Sequence record: MF327009
Direction: 5' to 3' (one strand)
Source: Shigella phage Sf25
Length of the DNA stretch: 64,000 bases
The notes below the pieces were generated by a model that saw only the letters and a list, made by a program, of their open reading frames with translations, was not told the origin of the DNA and did not search any database. Positions 2,916 to 59,445 of the stretch are shown piece after piece. The translations under genes and the position numbers were made by a program. Numbering within the stretch: position 1 is the first letter of the stretch; every line of letters begins with the position of its first letter.

Positions 2916-3271
2916 TCGTCTTTAAACAATCGGTTAACTATATGAGCTATTATATCACCATGACACGGCTTTGGTTTACATGTGCATCCTAGCCTCATTC
3001 CACGTAAAGGCTCTAAATGTGCTTTAGTTATTTCTCCGGATTTAATTCGACGTATAAAATCTTTTTTGAATAATTCAATGGCAGCCTCCCGGCTCGTCTT
3101 TAAACAATCGGTTAACTATATGAGCTATTATATCACCATGACACGGCTTTGGTTTACATGTGCATCCTAGCCTCATTCCACGTAAAGGCTCTAAATGTGC
3201 TTTAGTTATTTCTCCGGATTTAATTCGACGTATAAAATCTTTTTTGAATAATTCAATGGCAGCCTCCCGGC
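2916..3271. repeat. Exact direct tandem duplication, 2 x 178 bp, spanning the 3' end of a small ORF just upstream of the nrdA start
   Basis: cgtctttaaacaatcggttaactatatgagc... recurs at 2917 and 3095. Confidence 0.9.
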
Positions 3272-6441: not shown

Positions 6442-6887
6442 TACTTTTTGAAAGTTTTTCGCAAAAGTTCAATGATTTCATCTACATTGTTTTCGTCAAC
6501 AATGCAGTGAATTTTTGTTACGCCAGAAACCTTGTCTATGACTTCATCTACATTGTTTTCGTCAACAATGCAGTGAATTTTTGTTACGCCAGAAACCTTG
6601 TCTTTGACTTCATCTTCTTCAGAAGTCGGTTCTTTATACTCACGAAAACAATGAAATTCATCTTCGCAAATTTCTAAAAGTCTATCTTTGAGGTAAAAAT
6701 GCTTTCCATTTGCGCATTCAATGTGTTTTACTGCTTTATATCCATTAGCGACGGAAACTTCTTTAACTTCAAACCATCCGCCATTATCTCGAATAGCTTT
6801 AACGATTGATGAATTAGAACGTGGGCTATAATTAATAAATGTATCAATAAGTCTTGGAACAAGTTCATACTTTTTGCCAATATACAT
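6441..6887 (-). CDS. Hypothetical protein carrying an in-frame 22-aa tandem repeat
   Basis: ORF track 148 aa; DKVSGVTKIHCIVDENNVDE repeated. Confidence 0.55.
   Translation of the reverse strand: MYIGKKYELVPRLIDTFINYSPRSNSSIVKAIRDNGGWFEVKEVSVANGYKAVKHIECANGKHFYLKDRLLEICEDEFHCFREYKEPTSEEDEVKDKVSGVTKIHCIVDENNVDEVIDKVSGVTKIHCIVDENNVDEIIELLRKTFKK
6477..6608. repeat. Near-exact direct tandem duplication, 2 x 66 bp
   Basis: ttcatctacattgttttcgtcaacaatgcagtgaatttttgttacgccagaaaccttgtct occurs at 6477 and 6543. Confidence 0.85.
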
Positions 6888-16134: not shown

Positions 16135-19100
16135 ATGGCTACTTTAAAACAAATACAATTTAAAAGAAGCAAAACTGCAGGTCAACGTCCTGCTGCTTCA
16201 GTATTAGCCGAAGGTGAATTGGCTATAAACTTAAAAGACCGTACTCTTTTTACTAAAGATGACTCGGGAAATATTATTGATTTAAGCATTTCTGCCGGTG
16301 GTAACATTAGTGGAAATATCACTCAAAATGGTGATTATTTACAAAACGGCACGTATAATCTTAATGGAAATCAGTTTGTTTATGCAGGAAAGTATATTGA
16401 ATTCTTGCCAAAAACTGCTGGAAATGGTGCTTGGGCAAATCAGCACACAAATAAAGCTCCAATTTTCACCGATTTGAGTTCAACTACTTCAACTTCTGAA
16501 TATCATCCGCTAATTAAACAACGTTATAAAGATGGAACGTTTTCATTAGGGACTTTAGTTTCTGAAGGCTCAATGAAGATACACTATATCGATGAAACTG
16601 GCACTTCAAAATATTGGACTTTCCGACGTGATGGTGGTTTTGTTGTTGATAGTGGTAGTTTAACTGTTACTGCTGGAAACATATCTGCTTCAGGCAATAT
16701 TAATTCGGCATCAGGGGTTGTTTCAGCTCCTCAAATTAATACAAAAACCATTGTTTTAGATACAAAAGCATTTGGACAATATGATTCGCAGTCATTAGTT
16801 CAGTATGTTTATCCTGGCACTGGCGAAACAAACGGTATAAACTATCTTCGTAAAGTTCGCGCAAAATCAGGTGGTACAATTTATCATGAAATAGCTTCAG
16901 CTCAAAGTGGAAAAAGCGATGAAATTTCGTGGTGGACTGGAAATACAGCCGTTAATAAACAAATGGGTCTTCGTAATGATGGTGCAATGGTATTACGTCG
17001 TTCACTTGCTATTGGCACAATTACTACAGATGAAAACGTAAATAACTATGGATCTGCTGGAGCAATGGGAGAAAAATACATTGTTCTTGGAGATGCGTCA
17101 ACTGGACTAGCTTATAAAAAGACAGGAGTTTATGACTTAGTTGGTAGTGGTTTATCTGTTGCTTCTATCACTCCCGACAGTTTTCGTAGTACCCGTAAAG
17201 CAATTTTTGGACGTTCTGAAGACCAAGGCGGTACATGGCTTCTTCCTGGTCAAAACGCTGCTCTTCTTTCAGTTCGTACAGATATTGATCAAAATAATAA
17301 CGGTGATGGTCAAACTCATATTGGATATAATAGTAACAGCAAGTTTTATCATTATTTTAGAGGCAGAGGCCGAATGGCTGTTGGAATGGCTGAAGGTCTT
17401 ATTGTTGAGCCTGGAATTTTAGATATTAAAACTGGTTCAAATACTGTTTCTATTAGAGCTGATGGCGGAATTTCATCTACTCAGCGTCTTTCATTGCAGA
17501 ATGGTATATTTTTATCTTCTGACGGAAATAACAACGGTATATCGTTTAAAGCTTCTAGCAGTATAGATGGAACTAAAACTCTTAATTGGGATGCTGGTAC
17601 TCGTGCAGGTCAAAACAAAAATACAGTAATTTTAAAAGCATGGGGAAATTCATTTAATACAAGTGGTGGAACTGATAGACATACTGTATTTGAAGTTTCT
17701 GATTCGCAAGGATACTACTTTTATGCTCAACGTACTACCCCTGCATCCGGTCAAACAGTAGGTCCTATTAATTTTAAATTTAATGGTACTGTAGAAACCG
17801 GTCATATCAATGGATTAGGTAATATTACTTTATCTGGGGCAGTTATAGCAGATTCTGCTAATATTAAAGGACCGCTAAAAATATCTAATGCTAATACAGC
17901 TGATGCTTTTAGAATATGGAACGCTGAATATGGAGCCATTTTCCGTCGTTCAGAAACATCATTGCATATTATTCCTACACTTAAAGATGCAGGGGAAAAT
18001 GGTGGAATAAGTAATCTTCGCCCATTAAGTATTGATCTTTCAAACGGATTTGTGCAAATGCATCATTCTCTTTCTGTGGGGAATACAGTAAGAACGAATG
18101 GATTGTTTGCTGTGGATACTTCAGCTGCTCTTGTTGCAATTAACAGATGTTCCTATTGTGAAACAAAGATACGTTCAAGGGAATAGCACCTATTCATTAG
18201 GTACTTTAATTAATGGTGGTGATTTCCGTTTACATTACCATGAAGGCGGTGACAGTTCTTCAACAGGTGCAGTTATAAAAGATATTTCCTGGGAATTTAA
18301 ACGTAATGGTGATTTCTATTCGCCAGGTCGTTTACGTACAGGAAATATCTATATTGGAACTGATGGTAATATCACGGGTGGTTCTGGTAACTTTGCTAAC
18401 TTGAATACAACTTTAAACCGTAAAGTTAATTCTGGTTTTATTACTTATGGAGCAACTGCAGGTTGGTACAAGTTTGCAACAGTAACAATGCCTCAAGCTA
18501 CATCAACCGTTTCAATTACAGTCACTGGCGGAAATGGATTTAATTCTGGATCATTTAATCAGTGTGCAATTTCTGAAATTGTTCTTCGTACAGGAAACAA
18601 TAATCCTCTGGTGATACATATGACATTTATGTTAATATGGGAACATATGCTAATCAGTTGATATTTAACTATAGTTCTGTTGATAATGCCACAGTTCAAA
18701 TTATTGGCGCATTCAGTTCAGCTCAAAATCCTGTTGATGCATTGCCAGAAACATATGTTAAAGGTCAGGTAGCAGATGTATTGACTAACTTAGTTGATTC
18801 TGGAAAAACGAAGCGTTTTGTTGCTGAATCTGAAATAGCTATTAATAATCAAACTGGATTACGTATTACGAGTAATGGTGATAAATCTGGTTCAAATTCA
18901 GTATTATTCAGAAATGATGGATCAGCGTTTTATATTCTTTTAACAGATAAAAACGCAGCAGATGGAAATACGACTGCCACAGAAGGAGATTGGAATGGTA
19001 AACGTCCTTTCCAAATTAATATGACTTCTGGTGAAGTAACATTCGGAAATAATATTAATATTTCTGGAAACGGAAGCATTACTTGGACAAAAGCCGGAGC

Positions 19101-19770
19101 AAACCCTAGAAATATGAGAATATTTCATGCAGGTGATGCTTCTCGTGGTAACCGTATTGAAATCGCAGATGATACTAATTATATTGCTTACTTTGAAAAA
19201 ACTCCAGGTGGAGCTAACCGCTTTGTAGTTAATGGTGCTACTGTAGCTGGTGTTAATCAAATGAATTCATTTGGTATTAACATCAATAACGCGCTTGGTG
19301 GAAATAGTATAGCATTTGGTGATAATGACACGGGTATTAAGCAAAACGGCGATGGATTATTAGACATTTATGCGAATGGTGTGCAAACGTTCCGTTTCCA
19401 AAACGGTGATTTGTACTCATATAAAAATATAAATGCCCCAAACGTTTATATTCGTTCTGATATTCGCTTAAAATCTAATTTCAAACCTATCGAAAATGCA
19501 CTTGATAAAGTTGAAAAACTCAATGGTGTCATTTATGATAAAGCTGAATATATCGGTGGAGAGGCAATTGAAACTGAAGCGGGTATTGTGGCTCAAACGT
19601 TACAAGACGTTTTACCAGAAGCCGTCCGTGAAACAGAAGACAGCAAGGGTAATAAAATACTCACTGTTTCTTCTCAAGCCCAGATTGCTCTTCTGGTTGA
19701 AGCTGTGAAAACGCTTTCTTCTCGTGTAAAAGAACTTGAATCTAAACTTCTTGAATCTAAACTTATGTAA
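16135..19770 (+). pseudogene. 37: Long tail fibre distal subunit gp37 (T2-type with C-terminal intramolecular chaperone domain), interrupted by two frame changes (frame 1, +1, frame 1)
   Basis: Three ORF-track pieces 16135..18186, 18098..18661, 18637..19770, each with fibre-like sequence; C-terminus ...IRSDIRLKSNFKPIENALDKVEKLNGVIYDK. Confidence 0.6.
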
Positions 19771-29330: not shown

Positions 29331-31757
29331 TTAGGCCGCAAGGGCCTTCATAGTTTTAGCGATTTGAGAAACTTCATCATCACTTAAAGAGTTGCGATAA
29401 CCGATGAAGTCGGAAACAATACGGAATTTCTTGGTAAACTCAGCAACCATTTTATCACTGTTTTTTGAAGCATTATTTGATAATACATCAAAAAGATTAG
29501 TTACTGTCCAGATGTCATGACCGATGGTACCTTTTCCACCGTTGAAATATACGCCCCGCAATGAACTAACTATATTAGCGAGTCGTGTATATTCTTCAGA
29601 AACTTCATCTGTACTGAAGTACTTCATCATAAAATCTAGTTCAGGATACTTGATAATTTTATCAATATATCGTTGAGCTGAACTTGAATAACCTACGTAC
29701 TTATCATAATCTACATCATCAAAAGCATCTACATATAAATCACGCAGAGTTTCAAAAATACATTGGCACTGACCGAGTTCTTTTACCTTTTTCTGCAAAA
29801 GCGGACGAATAACATAAAATTCATTAATGCCAATAAGATTAGCCATACGAATCAAAATATTCATAGATGGATGACAAAGAGATGTAGTACCATCCATAGA
29901 GAAAATATCAGAACGATGCATATACGCTACATAACCAGTAATTTCATCTGCTTCTGATGTGAGCGTAAACAGTTCCTCTTTTTCCCATCGCCCATCTTTA
30001 ATTTCAAACTTAAATGCTGTAGCAGCTTTAGGACGAGGAGCTTTACTTTTAACTACCTTTGGAATATAGCTTTTAACTAAAGCTTCAATTTCTGACAAAT
30101 AATGAATGTTAACTTCATCACTTTCAAACATCGCCATAATATCAGGAAGTAAATCAATCTGCGATTCTACTTCTGGATTAATAAACAGAAGACGCTCATT
30201 GTGATGAATATTCAAAGTGTTATTAAATTCACTATCATCTAACGCATGTGCTAATCCACGAACAATATTAACACGATTTTTAATATTATCAATAACGATA
30301 TTAATTTTTGTTGTATTAATACCAAACAGACGATAACTTGATGCAACGGCTGAAGTTTCATGACTTTGCTTAATGCGTTTCAGTCGAGGGTCAAGATTTA
30401 CTTCATACACAACTCCTGCATTGCATAACTTACTGTCAGGTTCAAACATGCTCTGCATCTTTTTATATGACAGATTTTTAGTCGTGAATTTGACTGAATT
30501 ACTAATCATATAATCTCGAGCAGAATATCCCATCTTCATCAATTCACGATATGTGTGACGAGGAGATGTAGATTCTTTAAATCGTTTTACATCTTCATTG
30601 AATGCCTTCTCACTAAGCTCTTTAACACGCTCAATAATATTTTTACGAGTACGATCATCTAGTGAAAGAGCTTCGCGTGATGGAGCAATATCAAGTGAAC
30701 CCATTGGAAACTTAATGTAATTCACTTCATTGCGAATGCTTAGCCAGTTACGGTCTCTAATAACACCATCGATAGGATAAACAATACCGCCATAGATAGC
30801 ATATAATCCACCACGATCAGGCCAGTATCTTTCTGGATTTACACCATAATAATCATCAAAATCAGGAAAATAATCAATTTCAATAATATTTTTACGAGTA
30901 CGATCATCTAGTGAAAGAGCTTCGCGTGATGGAGCAATATCAAGTGAACCCATTGGAAACTTAATGTAATTCACTTCATTGCGAATGCTTAGCCAGTTAC
31001 GGTCTCTAATAACACCATCGATAGGATAAACAATACCGCCATAGATAGCATATAATCCACCACGATCAGGCCAGTATCTTTCTGGATTTACACCATAATA
31101 ATCATCAAAATCAGGAAAATAATCAATTTCGCGGTCAAGACCATTAATGATAGCCAAATCTTTGAACGGTCGCATGATATAAGAAACTTCATAAGCAAAG
31201 TTTCTAAAGTCTTTTTCTTCAACTGGAACTACGATTTCAATACCAGTTTTATCATCTGGACCCATTTCTTTTACGAATGTAGGTTTAATCTGTGGGCCAT
31301 CACCATCCATGTAAGCTACATAACCACGAATTTCACCTTTATGATACGAAGTAATACTAAACGTATCAGTATAACTAAACGGAGATTTAGAACCTAAACC
31401 AAATCCGCCAATAAAGTCATTAGATTCAGCCTTAGATGAACTGAAGTATGAATTATACAGCCCAGGAGAATTATCATCACCCTGAATATCAAAATCACTC
31501 ATACCCGGACCAAAATCTCGACAAACAAATCGTGGATCTAATCGTCCTGGAACTTGAATGATAAATTTTTCAGGATTTCCATTAAGTGCATGAGCATCAA
31601 TCATGTTAGTAATCAATTCACGGACTACTGCGCGAATCTTGTTTGTATACAAATCAGATGACAGAATTTTAAATACTTTAGGATTTGCTGCGATGCTAAA
31701 TGCTTTTGATTTAGAACCATTGCCAAGAATTGTTTCTTTTTCAGTGGTGATAATCAT
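29331..31757 (-). CDS. rIIA: rIIA protein; 808 aa including an 83-aa in-frame tandem duplication
   Basis: N-terminal GHKL-like ATPase sequence; peptide [25 protein letters not shown]...RTRKNII occurs twice. Confidence 0.9.
30632..31129. repeat. Exact direct tandem duplication, 2 x 249 bp, inside rIIA
   Basis: caataatatttttacgagtacgatcatctagtgaaagagc... begins at 30632 and 30881. Confidence 0.9.
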
Positions 31758-42809: not shown

Positions 42810-42839
42810 ATCATATCATCGTTAGAAAGGAAAGTAAAC
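42810..42839 (-). promoter_or_regulatory. Putative early promoter for modB (GTTTAC-N18-TATGAT); part of it is re-created in the adjacent duplication
   Basis: Reverse complement GTTTACTTTCCTTTCTAACGATGATATGAT, then GGAGG RBS. Confidence 0.5.
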
Positions 42840-43228
42840 AACTTTTTGAATTATTTTGCCCAGGGAGCCCAAGGCGGAGGGTCAAGATGGTATGAAGCTA
42901 GTTCTTCTAGAAGAGCATCTGGGGCTTCAATTCCATAATTCTGTAATACTATACGGTACTCTTTCTTATAATCACTAGAATCATTCTGGTTATTCGTAGA
43001 ATGATTATCTTCTAACATTCATATCATCGTTAGAAAGGAAAGTAAACAACTTTTTGAATTATTTTGCCCAGGGAGCCCAAGGCGGAGGGTCAAGATGGTA
43101 TGAAGCTAGTTCTTCTAGAAGAGCATCTGGGGCTTCAATTCCATAATTCTGTAATACTATACGGTACTCTTTCTTATAATCACTAGAATCATTCTGGTTA
43201 TTCGTAGAATGATTATCTTCTAACATCT
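42813..43228. repeat. Exact direct tandem duplication, 2 x 208 bp, covering a promoter/intergenic region and most of a small ORF
   Basis: atatcatcgttagaaaggaaagtaaacaactttttgaattattttgcccagggagccc... begins at 42813 and 43021. Confidence 0.9.
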
Positions 43229-45530: not shown

Positions 45531-46293
45531 TTAATAGCCTCGATCTTGACGAGCGAAGTTTTCAGCATTTTTCAGATAATAAAGTTTAAAGATTTCCTCA
45601 GCTGACATTCCAAGAGCAATGAATTTATTCATGAAAAAGTGAAATTGGTCAATCAGTTCAAATTTAATTTCAAGCTGATCTTCAGGAGATAAGTCTTGAA
45701 TTTTCTTGGATTGCATTTCAGAATAACGTTTCTTCCAAGGTTTCCATACAGCAGAAGCTTCTTTTTCACCATTACTCATACCACCAAGAGAAGTATATAG
45801 CTCGCGAGTTTCATCTGCGATATAATCGTCTTGGTTTCGCAACCAAGCAAGAACTTCTCCTGCAGTTTCAAGTGAATCAGGATGACGATTTGTTTCTGGT
45901 TTATCATTAGCCAAACGAATCTGTAAATGCCGCTGCATGTCAAATTTTCTTGGATTGCATTTCAGAATAACGTTTCTTCCAAGGTTTCCATACAGCAGAA
46001 GCTTCTTTTTCACCATTACTCATACCACCAAGAGAAGTATATAGCTCGCGAGTTTCATCTGCGATATAATCGTCTTGGTTTCGCAACCAAGCAAGAACTT
46101 CTCCTGCAGTTTCAAGTGAATCAGGATGACGATTTGTTTCTGGTTTATCATTAGCCAAACGAATCTGTAAATGCCGCTGCATGTCAAGCATAACCTGCAA
46201 TGGGTCAATACTGTGCATAATATACTCAGCATATGCACGATTTGCTTTATCAACACCTTCGATCAAATGAGCACATTCATTAAAGTGAGCCAT
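45531..46293 (-). pseudogene. 56: dCTPase/dUTPase gp56 (MazG-like) disrupted by a frameshifting 244-bp tandem duplication
   Basis: N-terminal frame MAHFNECAHLIEGVDK... (AAGGAAA RBS) terminates at the repeat junction near 45940; C-terminal part ...ALGMSAEEIFKLYYLKNAENFARQDRGY is in another frame. Confidence 0.6.
45700..46187. repeat. Exact direct tandem duplication, 2 x 244 bp (not a multiple of 3), inside gene 56
   Basis: attttcttggattgcatttcagaataacgtttcttcc... begins at 45700 and 45944. Confidence 0.9.
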
Positions 46294-46353
46294 TATTTTT
46301 CCTTTCAATTCATTAATAAGTTAAATAATTATATCATTTGAGTATGTAAGCAA

Positions 46354-54536: not shown

Positions 54537-55381
54537 TCACCGTTATAATCTTTTTTCACAATATGAGTTTCGCCAGTATTCCACCAATGATCAACCAAGT
54601 AAAAATGACGAGAATATACATGAAGACTTCCAACATTCCATATAATAGAACCTGCTTTATACTGACGAGTTGAATCGCCGGCATTCAAATCAGATACTAA
54701 TTTATCTAATACGTATTTTTGCCATGCATAATCATTACGGAATCCGAAGACCACGTCATTTGAGCGCATGCTTACTACTGCATTGACTTTCTTATCACGA
54801 ATCAGGTACTGTACTGTATTAGTACACATGAAATCTGACATACCATCTTTATTGTAGTCAAATTGCATGGATGGACGAGTCATGCTTACTACTGCATTGA
54901 CTTTCTTATCACGAATCAGGTACTGTACTGTATTAGTACACATGAAATCTGACATACCATCTTTATTGTAGTCAAATTGCATGGATGGACGAGTATAAAT
55001 CATGATACCACGTCGAGAATCAGGATTTTGACCAAGTTCAGCTAAACACATATCATACTGGGCATAGTTATCTTCTGACCAAATAGCCCAACCATAATTC
55101 GAGTTAATTTCGCCTTTAGAAGATGCTACCTGCTGCCAAATCTTTGGTGTTTCGCCTGGAATATCTTTGACAAACAGACTTTGAGACTTGTACCATTCAA
55201 GTTCACGCTGAATGTATTCATCATTAAGAGCGCCAAAAATAAAGGGTTCATCTGCTACAAATGATGCGCCAATAATTTCAATAGTTTTAACACCGGTTTT
55301 ATCAACTACGAAATCTTTTTCTTTTAATGCAAGCCCCAAATGAAGACGGATTTCTTCAACTGTCATAAAGTCACTAATCAT
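54527..55381 (-). CDS. 42: dCMP hydroxymethylase gp42; 284 aa including a 38-aa in-frame tandem duplication
   Basis: ThyA-like fold sequence; peptide TRPSMQFDYNKDGMSDFMCTNTVQYLIRDKKVNAVVSM occurs twice. Confidence 0.9.
   Translation of the reverse strand: MISDFMTVEEIRLHLGLALKEKDFVVDKTGVKTIEIIGASFVADEPFIFGALNDEYIQRELEWYKSQSLFVKDIPGETPKIWQQVASSKGEINSNYGWAIWSEDNYAQYDMCLAELGQNPDSRRGIMIYTRPSMQFDYNKDGMSDFMCTNTVQYLIRDKKVNAVVSMTRPSMQFDYNKDGMSDFMCTNTVQYLIRDKKVNAVVSMRSNDVVFGFRNDYAWQKYVLDKLVSDLNAGDSTRQYKAGSIIWNVGSLHVYSRHFYLVDHWWNTGETHIVKKDYNGEWK
54767..54994. repeat. Exact direct tandem duplication, 2 x 114 bp, inside gene 42
   Basis: catgcttactactgcattgactttcttatcacgaatcagg... begins at 54767 and 54881. 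Confidence 0.9.
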
Positions 55382-56601: not shown

Positions 56602-59445
56602 TCAGCCAAACAGGAAGTCTAACGAAGCTTTTTCTTCATAGTCCATACCAGCCGATTCACACATGCCTGCAAGCGGTTTAACAAACGATTTTTGGAACAA
56701 AGTTGAGTAGTCAATCCAAGACAGTACGTCAGAACGAATTTCTTTTGGAAGTTCTGTACCCGACGGCCAAGCAATGCATTTGTCACCAAATGGATTTCCT
56801 TCACGCAATGGAAGAACCATTACTTTATTTCCATCCAAAATTGGAGCTACACCTAAACCGCTAACAGCTCGACGATAAGTTAGCACACCACGAATATGGA
56901 ACGGACATTTAAATCCTGGCCAACCTTTATCATCATATTTCGCTATATCGTTCGCAGTTTTTACTTCAGCAATAACTTTATAGTCAAGTTGACGATATTC
57001 TTTCTCGAAGTTCTTGTAATATTCTTGGACAGACTCTTCACCTTCCTGAAGAATACGACGAATACTTTCTTCGAGAGCTTCTTGGACCGCTTTAGGCGTT
57101 GAACTCTGCTGAGTTTCCATACCCATGATTTTTAGATGCGGTTCAGCAAATCGCTTATCTTCCATATCATATACGTTCAGAGCATAACGCTTTTTCGCTT
57201 TCCAAAATCCGCCAACGCCCTTTGAACCAAGTGGAGGGCAAGAAATAGCTTCACGGTCCATATGCATCAGATGCTCGCGGTTATTCATATAATCACATAA
57301 CTCACGATATGCAACATCAATCATAGGTTCCATCTTTTTCTTACCGAACTGATTCATGAATTCAACTAAATCGTTCTGCTCTTTGAATCGGTCAAGACCA
57401 ACTTTTTCAATAACTTTATCTACACAAACATATACCGAATCAGTATCACCTGCTGCAATGAAATCTTCGCCATTAGTTCCGCATACTTTATTCAGATATT
57501 CATTAATTTTACGAGCAATCCACTGAATACCAACTTGGCCGAAAATTGTGATAGCAGTAGCATTTCGCAAATCATAGTAACGGAAATGAATATTACCAAG
57601 AGCACCATAAAGACTGTTAATAAGAATTTTACGGTTCAGCTGATTTGTGTTAGCAAGTGTAGCTGCTTTTTCACACTCTTCGATCAAACTATTAAGAACA
57701 GATTCGGTGTAATTCGATAGTTCATTTAAGAAATCATCACTGAACTTAACATATCGTTCAACTTCTGGTTTAGTTGAGCAAGACCCTGCGCCTTTCATAA
57801 TAATCTTTTTAATAGCTTCGGCATTCATTTCTTCAGCGAACATTTTCTTTTTCCAATCTTTACGCTGGAAAAATACTTTAGCGATTTCCTTTGGAATGAT
57901 ACCTTCTTGATGCTTATCATACATCCATCCATTCGGAGAACAAGAATATTCATCACTCGGTTTAGGAGCTGTTCCTGCGATATATTCATGAATTGGATGA
58001 ACTTTAAACTGACCACGAATAGTCTCAGGACTAATGTTAACCTGACGAATAATGCTCGGATACAGAGACGTCAAGTCAAAACTCATAATATATCGACGAG
58101 CAATTGGTTTAGGTTCAAACACAAATGCACCCGGAAAACTCTGTTTAACGTGCGAACCTTGTTGAGGAATAACCTTATGTTCACCTTTCAATGAGTTAAA
58201 AATAATAGCATCCCAAGTTTTAATAGGACTCATTACACCGGAAAAAGGCATTTTAGCGTAATAAGACATACTTAAAACTAGATCGATAAACCCGCGAATT
58301 TTATCAATTGCTTGAACTGATTCTACGTCAATGATGTTATAACTAATGTATCGTTGATGATTAGTCTCACGAAGTTTATTAATAGGACCGTCGTATGGTA
58401 ATTTACCTTTTTTGGTTTCATGTTGAGCAACTGATTCCAAAGAGAATGACGGCAAATTAGTAAAAGCGAATTTCTTGTACAAATCTAAATAATCAAGAAT
58501 AGATACGCCATCAATAGAATAAATTTCTTTGCTGCCGTACATATTTTGAATTAGTTTGGATTTTACCCGACCGATTGGAGAGAAACGTTTCATACTGCGT
58601 TCGCCTAGAATCATTTTAACACGATTCATGATATATGGAACGTCAAACCCCTCAATATTCCAACCGGTAAAAATAGCAGGTCGTTTCTGTTCCCAGAGAT
58701 TGATATATTCCATGAGCATATCACGCTCATTATCGAATGGCATATAAATTACTCGGTCAAGAATTTCTTGAGGAACTTCATCACCACCTTCACAGTCAAG
58801 CTTAGCAGCTAACTTTGCATCCCATTTTGATACTGAACCGTACATTGAATTCAAAAGGTCGAAAACATAAAAACGATCGTCAATTGAATCGTAATGAGTG
58901 ATAGCATCAATTTCATATTCAGCTTTCATTGGGTCAGGAAATTTATCACCAGTAACCTCAATGTCACAGTTAGCTACACGAACACCGTACATTGAATTCA
59001 AAAGGTCGAAAACATAAAAACGATCGTCAATTGAATCGTAATGAGTGATAGCATCAATTTCATATTCAGCTTTCATTGGGTCAGGAAATTTATCACCAGT
59101 AACCTCAATGTCACAGTTAGCTACACGAACAAATTTTCGGTCATAAACAATTTCTGAACCATATGTATCACTGATATAAGCGAGTTTAAAATCGTTCATA
59201 CCGAGAGCTTCGAGACCGATGTCTTCCATTCGCTTCATCCAATCTCGAGCATCTTTCATTGATGGAAATTTTTGAGGAGCGCAGTTTTTACCATAGATGT
59301 CTTTGTACTTTGACTCTTCCTTACAATGCCTAAACATAGTTGGAAGATATTCTACTTCACGAGTACGTTCCTTTCCATTTTCATCAATATAACGTTCAAC
59401 AATATTATTTCCGACTGTTTCAATAGAGATATAAAATTCTTTCAT
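56602..59445 (-). CDS. 43: DNA polymerase gp43 (family B); 947 aa including a 49-aa in-frame tandem duplication in the N-terminal/exonuclease region
   Basis: Pol B motifs (DxxSLYPS-like FDLTSLYPSII, YGDTDS-like GDTDSVY); peptide VRVANCDIEVTGDKFPDPMKAEYEIDAITHYDSIDDRFYVFDLLNSMYG occurs twice. Confidence 0.92.
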   Translation of the reverse strand: MKEFYISIETVGNNIVERYIDENGKERTREVEYLPTMFRHCKEESKYKDIYGKNCAPQKFPSMKDARDWMKRMEDIGLEALGMNDFKLAYISDTYGSEIVYDRKFVRVANCDIEVTGDKFPDPMKAEYEIDAITHYDSIDDRFYVFDLLNSMYGVRVANCDIEVTGDKFPDPMKAEYEIDAITHYDSIDDRFYVFDLLNSMYGSVSKWDAKLAAKLDCEGGDEVPQEILDRVIYMPFDNERDMLMEYINLWEQKRPAIFTGWNIEGFDVPYIMNRVKMILGERSMKRFSPIGRVKSKLIQNMYGSKEIYSIDGVSILDYLDLYKKFAFTNLPSFSLESVAQHETKKGKLPYDGPINKLRETNHQRYISYNIIDVESVQAIDKIRGFIDLVLSMSYYAKMPFSGVMSPIKTWDAIIFNSLKGEHKVIPQQGSHVKQSFPGAFVFEPKPIARRYIMSFDLTSLYPSIIRQVNISPETIRGQFKVHPIHEYIAGTAPKPSDEYSCSPNGWMYDKHQEGIIPKEIAKVFFQRKDWKKKMFAEEMNAEAIKKIIMKGAGSCSTKPEVERYVKFSDDFLNELSNYTESVLNSLIEECEKAATLANTNQLNRKILINSLYGALGNIHFRYYDLRNATAITIFGQVGIQWIARKINEYLNKVCGTNGEDFIAAGDTDSVYVCVDKVIEKVGLDRFKEQNDLVEFMNQFGKKKMEPMIDVAYRELCDYMNNREHLMHMDREAISCPPLGSKGVGGFWKAKKRYALNVYDMEDKRFAEPHLKIMGMETQQSSTPKAVQEALEESIRRILQEGEESVQEYYKNFEKEYRQLDYKVIAEVKTANDIAKYDDKGWPGFKCPFHIRGVLTYRRAVSGLGVAPILDGNKVMVLPLREGNPFGDKCIAWPSGTELPKEIRSDVLSWIDYSTLFQKSFVKPLAGMCESAGMDYEEKASLDFLFG
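58837..59130. repeat. Exact direct tandem duplication, 2 x 147 bp, inside gene 43
   Basis: accgtacattgaattcaaaaggtcgaaaacataaaaacgatcg... begins at 58837 and 58984. Confidence 0.9.

Follow-up and report, generated by a model that had tools for sequence, protein, structure and literature searches.

The 147-nt tandem repeat in DNA polymerase gene 43 of Shigella phage Sf25 is almost certainly an assembly artefact

Gene 43 as deposited

The stretch of DNA analysed here (hereafter the window) comprises 64,000 nucleotides of the Shigella phage Sf25 record MF327009. Gene 43 is located on its minus strand at positions 56602–59445 and, as deposited, encodes a T4-type family B DNA polymerase of 947 aa. 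The open reading frame is an exact match to AUV63457.1, the DNA polymerase of Sf25 (MF327009.1). Two Pfam domains place the protein in family B, namely PF03104 (DNA_pol_B_exo1, 75.3 bits) and PF00136 (DNA_pol_B, 88 bits), the cut-off being 23 for both. The neighbouring open reading frames keep the order found in T4 and Sf24 (imm.1 - 43 - regA - 62 - 44 - 45).

Analysis of the window with Tandem Repeats Finder reveals a repeat at 58837–59131 with a period of 147, 2.0 copies, 100% matches and 0 indels. A repeat search resolves it into two abutting copies, 58837–58983 and 58984–59130, which are 100% identical, and direct string comparison agrees. An exact tandem repeat of 147 nt cannot have arisen by chance. 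A preliminary description of this DNA had claimed that gene 43 carries at these positions an in-frame tandem duplication of 147 bp, and all three comparisons bear it out. According to the codon coordinates (minus strand), the copy at 58984–59130 codes for residues 106–154 and is the N-terminal one in the protein, while the copy at 58837–58983 codes for residues 155–203 and is the C-terminal one. The 49-aa unit VRVANCDIEVTGDKFPDPMKAEYEIDAITHYDSIDDRFYVFDLLNSMYG is accordingly read at residues 106–154 and again at 155–203 in the translation. The two copies meet at a novel junction between 58983 and 58984, where GCTACACGAAC is followed directly by ACCGTACATTG with a microhomology of 1 nt (A). The Exo I motif is present twice, first as D112-I113-E114 (codons at 59104–59112, minus strand) and then as D161-I162-E163 (58957–58965, minus strand). 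The role of D112 and E114 we take to be that established for T4 gp43.

The preliminary description had further stated that 49 residues including the Exo I D-I-E motif are added, giving 947 aa instead of 898 aa. Both statements are correct, as removal of one copy from the deposited protein leaves 898 aa. It had also proposed a comparison with reference gp43, and this places the de-duplicated protein only 2 residues away from T4 gp43 (DPOL_BPT4), at a length equal to that of the wild-type polymerase (898 aa; PDB 9e5y and 1noy; RB69 homologue 1ig9). The de-duplicated protein has the same Pfam domains as T4 gp43 and aligns over its full length with the solved T4 and RB69 structures. In contrast, the deposited protein differs from T4 gp43 in the doubling of residues 106–154, and it matches the T4 polymerase structure 9e5y (898 aa) in two stretches, with query residues 156–947 corresponding to chain residues 107–898 (E = 0). 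We expect the real gene 43 of Sf25 to be free of the doubling and its product to be an ordinary gp43 of 898 aa.

Absence of the repeat from related sequences

A gene 43 query of 1001 nt is spanned as 854 nt in 553 of the 553 phage records which cover it. The junction string was not found in the viral_contigs, metagenome_contigs and genome_contigs collections and has, therefore, no independent occurrence. The 947-aa protein AUV63457.1 itself is on record from only one contig. A literature search found no description of a tandem duplication in T4 gene 43.

It may be considered that codons 106–154 were duplicated very recently and in frame, by slippage or illegitimate recombination, in a phage which remained viable. 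One copy would then belong to the folded exonuclease core, while its twin would be looped out near the N-terminal/exonuclease domain border. Identity of the two copies is what a recent event would give, the reading frame stays open, and tandem duplications are known to arise in T4-type phages. The repeat unit starts at residue 106, which adjoins the N-terminal/exonuclease border of the RB69 and T4 structures; in the RB69 structure the 105/106 boundary lies near this border. Because 147 nt keeps the frame and the boundary is near a domain border, a real duplication is structurally not absurd. However, the repeat is missing from all 553 related records and from the three sequence collections, the microhomology at its junction is only 1 nt, and an unselected perfect direct repeat of 147 nt should be quickly lost through homologous recombination of the T4 type. 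The remainder of the window, discussed below, makes this reading very improbable.

Nine tandem duplications in the window

The window has nine tandem duplications that are private to this record, with lengths of 15, 66, 114, 147, 178, 208, 244, 249 and 249 nt, whereas an exact-tandem scan (periods 30–1000) of the equivalent 66.9 kb of T4 returned none. Seven of them are exact two-copy repeats (249, 178, 249, 208, 244, 114 and 147 nt in the order of the window), the 66-nt one has a single mismatch and the 15-nt one is exact. In Sf24 each of these seven exact repeats is present as one copy, and the 66-nt and 15-nt duplications are absent as well; the 66-nt duplication was not found in any listed relative. 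Eight duplications were compared with the listed relatives and with Sf24, all of which are single-copy, and the 15-nt one with Sf24 only. Many events in one record, all of them private with respect to its close relatives, is the picture given by false duplications.

Three of the exact duplications, besides that in gene 43, enlarge a protein in frame. The 249-nt duplication in nrdA (1651–2148) gives an NrdA of 837 aa instead of 754 aa (AUV63363.1), the 249-nt duplication in rIIA (30631–31128) gives a product of 808 aa instead of 725 aa (AUV63407.1), and the 114-nt duplication in gene 42 (54767–54994) gives a dCMP hydroxymethylase of 284 aa instead of 246 aa (AUV63453.1). The 178-nt duplication in nrdA.1 (2916–3271) causes a frameshift and leaves a product of 92 aa (AUV63364.1). 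The repeat scan also reveals a 208-nt duplication of modA.2 together with the adjacent spacer (42811–43226). The duplication in frd.2 (6472–6603) consists of two 66-nt copies with a single difference between them (T at 6476, C at 6542), and the 15-nt duplication occupies 19735–19764.

The 244-nt duplication in gene 56, the dCTPase gene (45699–46186), also shifts the frame and splits the gene into two fragments of 117 aa (AUV63439.1) and 135 aa (AUV63438.1), whereas relatives have a protein of 172 aa. Gene 56 is essential in T4. With an essential gene split, no phage that forms plaques can have the deposited sequence. The gene 43 event taken alone is in frame, but gene 56 and nrdA.1 are frameshifted in the same record. 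Given these broken sister genes, the record overall is not a faithful genome, which argues further against a real duplication in gene 43.

In total, three of the nine duplications cause a frameshift. Of the seven exact ones, four have a length that is a multiple of three (P = 0.17), so that selection to keep the frame is not apparent. Microhomology at the junctions of the seven exact duplications is 0–3 nt, and not the short direct repeat of several nt that slippage or illegitimate recombination would call for. The longest duplication is 249 nt, a length which is reached twice and never exceeded.

Junctions and sites that differ from Sf24

A comparison with Sf24 reveals a constant spacing around the junctions (J). 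Each of the nine has a mismatch between window and Sf24 at precisely J-250 or J-249. At gene 43, the differing sites are 58735, 249 nt to the left of the junction (G in the window, which is the T4 allele, and A in Sf24), and 59233, 249 nt to the right (C in the window, again the T4 allele, and T in Sf24). The modA.2 and gene 42 duplications likewise have mismatches at J-249 and J+249, while the nrdA.1 and frd.2 duplications have them at J-250 and J+248. The nrdA, rIIA and gene 56 duplications have the J-250 mismatch on the upstream side only. The 15-nt duplication has its mismatch at J-250, and on the downstream side Sf24 aligns with the window as far as J+247. With a background mismatch rate of 2.8% against Sf24, the chance of such a coincidence is 1.5e-9 for seven out of seven junctions and about 5e-12 for nine out of nine. 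The boundaries of the duplications are thus set at a fixed distance from polymorphic sites, which is a further mark of false duplication. No biological mechanism would be expected to set junctions at what appears to be one read length from sites that differ in another isolate, and the presence of the same signature at the eight other junctions speaks against a real duplication of codons 106–154. The preliminary description had implied a real variant polymerase, and on this point it does not stand, the gene 43 repeat being one of nine private duplications with a common assembly signature.

The window carries the T4 allele at most of the anchor sites, and these are therefore real polymorphisms and not read errors. 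The window as a whole appears as a mosaic of about 100% and about 96% identity to Sf24.

Proposed origin of the repeat

We consider it highly probable that the doubling of the 147 nt is false, having arisen during assembling or finishing of the Sf25 genome, and is absent from the phage DNA. The 249-nt ceiling and the distance of 249–250 nt between junction and anchor suggest that the library reads were about 250 nt long, and these reads may have been mixed at certain sites that distinguish Sf25 from an Sf24-like genotype. Such a read pool would not be homogeneous at those sites, and the assembler would therefore have given several contigs. Each contig would stop where the last read across a polymorphic site stops, 249–250 nt beyond that site, and adjacent contigs would overlap by less than one read length. 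If the contigs were then ordered and abutted, but not merged, during finishing, each overlap would be doubled in tandem. At gene 43, the contig on the right would begin with the 147 nt at positions 58984–59130, and the contig on the left would end with the 147 nt at positions 58837–58983. This overlap is a multiple of three and would for that reason have been annotated as an uninterrupted polymerase of 947 aa. The different alleles in the two 66-nt copies of frd.2 are what is expected for overlapping contig ends built from heterogeneous reads.

Records from the same study have been manually re-cut at CDS boundaries, namely those of Sf21 (rIIA), Sf22 (near mobD.1), Sf23 (5.4) and Sf24 (gene 2), which points to hand finishing. 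The original paper on Sf25 is that of Doore et al. 2018 (J Virol), and a later preprint agrees with the record in accession and length.

Heterogeneous reads, as suggested by the allele difference between the 66-nt copies and by the mosaic identity to Sf24, might also come from minority molecules in the lysate, heterogeneous or defective, which carry the duplication and were reported by the assembler. The repeat would then be real DNA without being part of a functional genome. However, nine independent events would be needed, each exactly one apparent read length away from a polymorphic site and none longer than 249 nt, and a pattern made of such a distance and such a ceiling would be a property of reads and not of molecules. 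We therefore regard minority molecules as an extremely improbable source.

In its simple form, with contigs breaking wherever the distance between two polymorphic sites exceeds one read, the false duplication by abutted contigs leaves some details unexplained. Mismatches to Sf24 are also located between the two gene 43 anchors (-144, -105 and +30), and the three junctions of the 249-, 249- and 244-nt duplications have no downstream anchor. These extra mismatches inside the overlaps and the missing downstream anchors suggest that the second genotype was Sf24-like but not Sf24, or that another algorithm was at work. Sf24 itself fits all upstream anchors but shows the extra mismatches, and Sf21 shares the upstream anchor of gene 43 but not the downstream one. 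No exact second genotype was found among the deposited genomes compared (Sf24, Sf21 and T4). Two other assembly scenarios were rejected. The first, a single circular contig which was rotated with its k-mer overlap left untrimmed, was dropped in view of the eight more duplications of differing lengths. The second, a mapping threshold under which every terminal read would hold equally many mismatches, does not agree with the 1 to 8 mismatches present in the last 250 nt.

Comparison with known duplications

False (heterotype) duplications in genome assemblies have been described by Ko et al. (2022, Genome Biol 23:205; PMC9516828). In those cases, allelic or heterogeneous reads keep overlapping pieces uncollapsed, so that a single sequence is doubled and genes are falsely gained or lengthened. 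The Sf25 duplications resemble them in that the 66-nt copies differ in allele and every junction is linked to a polymorphic site. However, the cases of Ko et al. are of kilobase scale and come from assemblies of diploid vertebrates, often with the copies separated by a gap, whereas the Sf25 copies are 15–249 nt long and abut each other with no Ns. The heterogeneity would lie between closely related phage genotypes in Sf25 and lies between haplotypes in the vertebrates. Moreover, the class of Ko et al. is defined by read depth and k-mer tests, and the Sf25 case by its sequence pattern.

The known genuine tandem duplications of T4, such as rII-region duplications and lab-selected amplifications, are kilobases long, under selection, single events and unstable. 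They have in common with the Sf25 repeats that both are head-to-tail direct repeats of phage sequence. Unlike them, the Sf25 repeats are nine short events within 64 kb, affect essential genes among others and have a ceiling at the probable read length.

Implications

The gene 43 repeat is almost certainly an assembly artefact and not a biological duplication. The Sf25 polymerase would then be an ordinary T4-type gp43, and the repeat is therefore without biological importance. It is scarcely credible that a plaque-forming T4-like phage uses a 947-aa polymerase with two Exo I segments, one of them looped out at the domain border; if it did, the duplicated gp43 might alter proofreading and mutation rate.

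The issue is rather one of data quality, as these 64 kb of MF327009.1 would by themselves hold nine false duplications or more. The annotated proteins affected would be the 947-aa polymerase, the 837-aa NrdA, the 808-aa rIIA, the 284-aa dCMP hydroxymethylase and the split dCTPase. AUV63457.1 is also UniProt A0A2K9VME2 and, according to the name line of the source, the RepID of an 18-member UniRef cluster. Surveys of domain architecture, pangenomes, training sets and scans for indels or duplications would pick up false signals from these entries. The 249/250-nt rule provides a cheap test which needs no reads, and it can be used to flag such artefacts in other short-read phage assemblies.

A tandem duplication in Sf24

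The sibling phage Sf24 has an exact tandem duplication of its own, 265 nt in length. This duplication does not follow the 249/250-nt rule when compared with the window, the nearest mismatches being located at -248 and +254.

Gene 43 repeat and its occurrence

The DNA polymerase gene of the window (gene 43; 56602–59445, minus strand) encodes an open reading frame (ORF) of 947 amino acids which contains both copies of a 147-nt unit. Tandem Repeats Finder places this unit at 58837–59131 with 2.0 copies, 100% matches and 0 indels, and both a repeat search and a direct string comparison reveal that the copies at 58837–58983 and 58984–59130 are identical, which bears out the 147-bp in-frame tandem duplication claimed in the preliminary description. 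The 49-residue unit occupies residues 106–154 and again 155–203, and the Exo I motif D-I-E is present twice (residues 112–114 and 161–163). The claimed addition of 49 residues including this motif, giving 947 aa in place of 898 aa, is thus correct by translation. Deletion of one copy restores a protein of 898 aa, which in alignment to the reference differs from T4 gp43 at 2 positions only. The Pfam domains DNA_pol_B_exo1 and DNA_pol_B are present in the 947-aa ORF, and the solved T4 and RB69 polymerase structures align with it end to end. AUV63457.1 (DNA polymerase, Shigella phage Sf25; MF327009.1, 168,573 bp) is an exact match to the 947-aa protein.

In a phage collection that does not contain the Sf25 record, all 553 records that cover a 1001-nt gene 43 query carry a single copy, each spanning 854 nt in two pieces. 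The junction string found no match in viral, metagenome or genome contig collections, and the Sf25 record is the sole known source of the 947-aa polymerase form. The closest relative across 40–64 kb is Shigella phage Sf24 (98.5% identity), which shares its study and its river of origin with Sf25.

Nine tandem duplications in the window

A whole-window scan reveals seven exact two-copy tandem duplications, whereas a scan of the equivalent 66.9 kb of T4 found no exact tandem duplication with a period of 30–1000. Besides the 147-nt repeat, these are 249 nt in nrdA (1651–2148; NrdA is 837 aa in the deposited record), 178 nt in nrdA.1 (2916–3271; NrdA.1 is 92 aa in the record), 249 nt in rIIA (30631–31128; 808 aa in the record), 208 nt in modA.2 (42811–43226), 244 nt in the dCTPase gene 56 (45699–46186) and 114 nt in gene 42 (54767–54994; dCMP hydroxymethylase, 284 aa in the record). 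Two further duplications are an exact one of 15 nt at an unassigned site near 19.7 kb (19735–19764) and one of 66 nt in frd.2 (6472–6603) with a single base difference between its copies. Each of the nine sites is single-copy in Sf24, and the 66-nt duplication is also missing from the other relatives compared. Because the affected ORFs are all present in the deposited record, the duplications belong to the GenBank entry and not to the preparation of the window.

Of the seven exact duplications, four have a length divisible by three, which is no excess over chance (P = 0.17); those of 178, 208 and 244 nt shift the frame. Gene 56 (45531–46308, minus strand) is split by its 244-nt duplication, with residues 1–117 in one frame and 36–172 in another, and is deposited as AUV63439.1 (117 aa) and AUV63438.1 (135 aa) instead of one 172-aa protein. 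As gene 56 is essential according to established T4 genetics, the deposited sequence cannot belong to a plaque-forming phage.

Junctions lie 249–250 nt from Sf24 differences

Four features of the duplications tie them to sequencing and assembly, not to biology: a length ceiling, a fixed anchor distance, an allele difference and a lack of microhomology. The maximum length is 249 nt, reached exactly by two duplications. If the base that opens the second copy is called J, every one of the nine junctions has a mismatch between the window and Sf24 at J-250 (six junctions) or J-249 (three). For a local mismatch rate of 2.8% and a 2-nt slot per junction, the chance probability of such upstream anchors is 1.5e-9 for seven of seven and about 5e-12 for nine of nine. 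A downstream difference is located at J+249 in three junctions, including gene 43, and at J+248 in two, while at the 15-nt junction the Sf24 alignment stops at J+247. The gene 43 anchors are positions 58735 and 59233; the window has the T4 allele at both and Sf24 the other allele, so these are genuine polymorphisms and not read errors. At one site the alleles of the 66-nt pair differ, with T at 6476 in one copy and C at 6542 in the other, as is expected of overlapping contig ends from a heterogeneous read pool. Junction microhomology is 0–3 nt across the seven exact duplications. We know of no replication or recombination mechanism that sets junctions at a fixed distance, probably one read length, from sites differing from another isolate.

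The gene 43 repeat is therefore almost certainly an assembly artefact in the public record, and its reading as a biological duplication is unsupported, since it carries the process signature of its eight sister duplications. A real duplication would be in frame and would start at residue 106, which we take from the RB69 structure to lie close to the border of the N-terminal and exonuclease domains, and is thus not structurally absurd; however, the signature common to the eight sister events, a microhomology of 1 nt and its uniqueness among hundreds of genomes make it highly improbable. The same points count against a minority rearranged subpopulation, the chances of which we consider very small. 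As an artefact, the gene 43 event resembles a neat in-frame variant only because the overlap chanced to be 147 nt.

Sf24 has an exact two-copy tandem duplication of its own, of 265 nt (MF327008.1 92090–92619; 37090–37619 in L004, a stretch of that record), from which the annotated pair gp121/gp122 results. This duplication is missing from the window and from all other relatives, which are about 267 nt shorter across the site. It deviates from the 249/250-nt rule with respect to the window, and may be either genuine or a further artefact.

A probable assembly route

Most likely, the reads were about 250 nt long and the library was heterogeneous at some Sf24-type sites, so that several contigs formed, each running as far as the outermost read that spanned such a site. 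Adjacent contigs would hence have overlapped by less than one read, and were presumably ordered and joined end to end with the overlaps left unmerged. The sibling records show clear signs of hand finishing, as their cuts fall precisely on differing CDS boundaries (Sf21 at rIIA, Sf22 near mobD.1, Sf23 at 5.4 and Sf24 at gene 2). Among published phenomena, the false heterotype duplication seen in genome assemblies (Ko et al. 2022, PMC9516828) comes closest.

Some observations fit the simple model poorly. Extra Sf24 mismatches are present between the gene 43 anchors (-144, -105 and +30), Sf21 has only the upstream anchor in common there, and the downstream anchor is missing at three junctions (249, 249 and 244 nt), where the right-hand contig begins 1–6 nt past the upstream anchor. 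These misfits suggest that either the second genotype was Sf24-like yet is represented by no deposited genome, or the algorithm was unlike the simple model. A model with a fixed mismatch count is ruled out, as the terminal 250 nt hold 1 to 8 mismatches.

Mosaic identity to Sf24

Identity to Sf24 is nearly complete (99.5–100%) in blocks at about 9–18.4, 46–54.7 and 60–64 kb and 93–97% in other blocks. The 46–54.7 kb block has the gene 56 duplication at one edge and the gene 42 duplication at the other, and both edges agree with contig boundaries at shared/divergent transitions. The mosaic could result from natural recombination among co-circulating phages or from chimeric assembly of a mixed lysate. 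The 1-kb tiles at 17000–19000 (tail-fibre/adhesin region) and around 53000 (adjoining gene 42) are at least 99.5% identical to Sf24 and have no BLAST match in the T4 reference stretches compared, which looks like ordinary T4-group cassette variation.

Consequences for database users

The main value of these results is a caution to anyone working with MF327009.1 or the protein entries derived from it; the 249/250-nt anchor test is a further useful outcome. According to the source name line of AUV63457.1, the 947-aa sequence (A0A2K9VME2) serves as RepID for a UniRef cluster of 18 members, and the falsely duplicated protein may spread as cluster representative. The gp43, NrdA and rIIA protein clusters also hold many partial T4-type proteins under bacterial names in NCBI (Pseudomonas aeruginosa, on contigs of ~5.5 kb, Enterococcus faecalis, Klebsiella and Salmonella), which probably stem from contamination of bacterial WGS assemblies with T4-like phage DNA.
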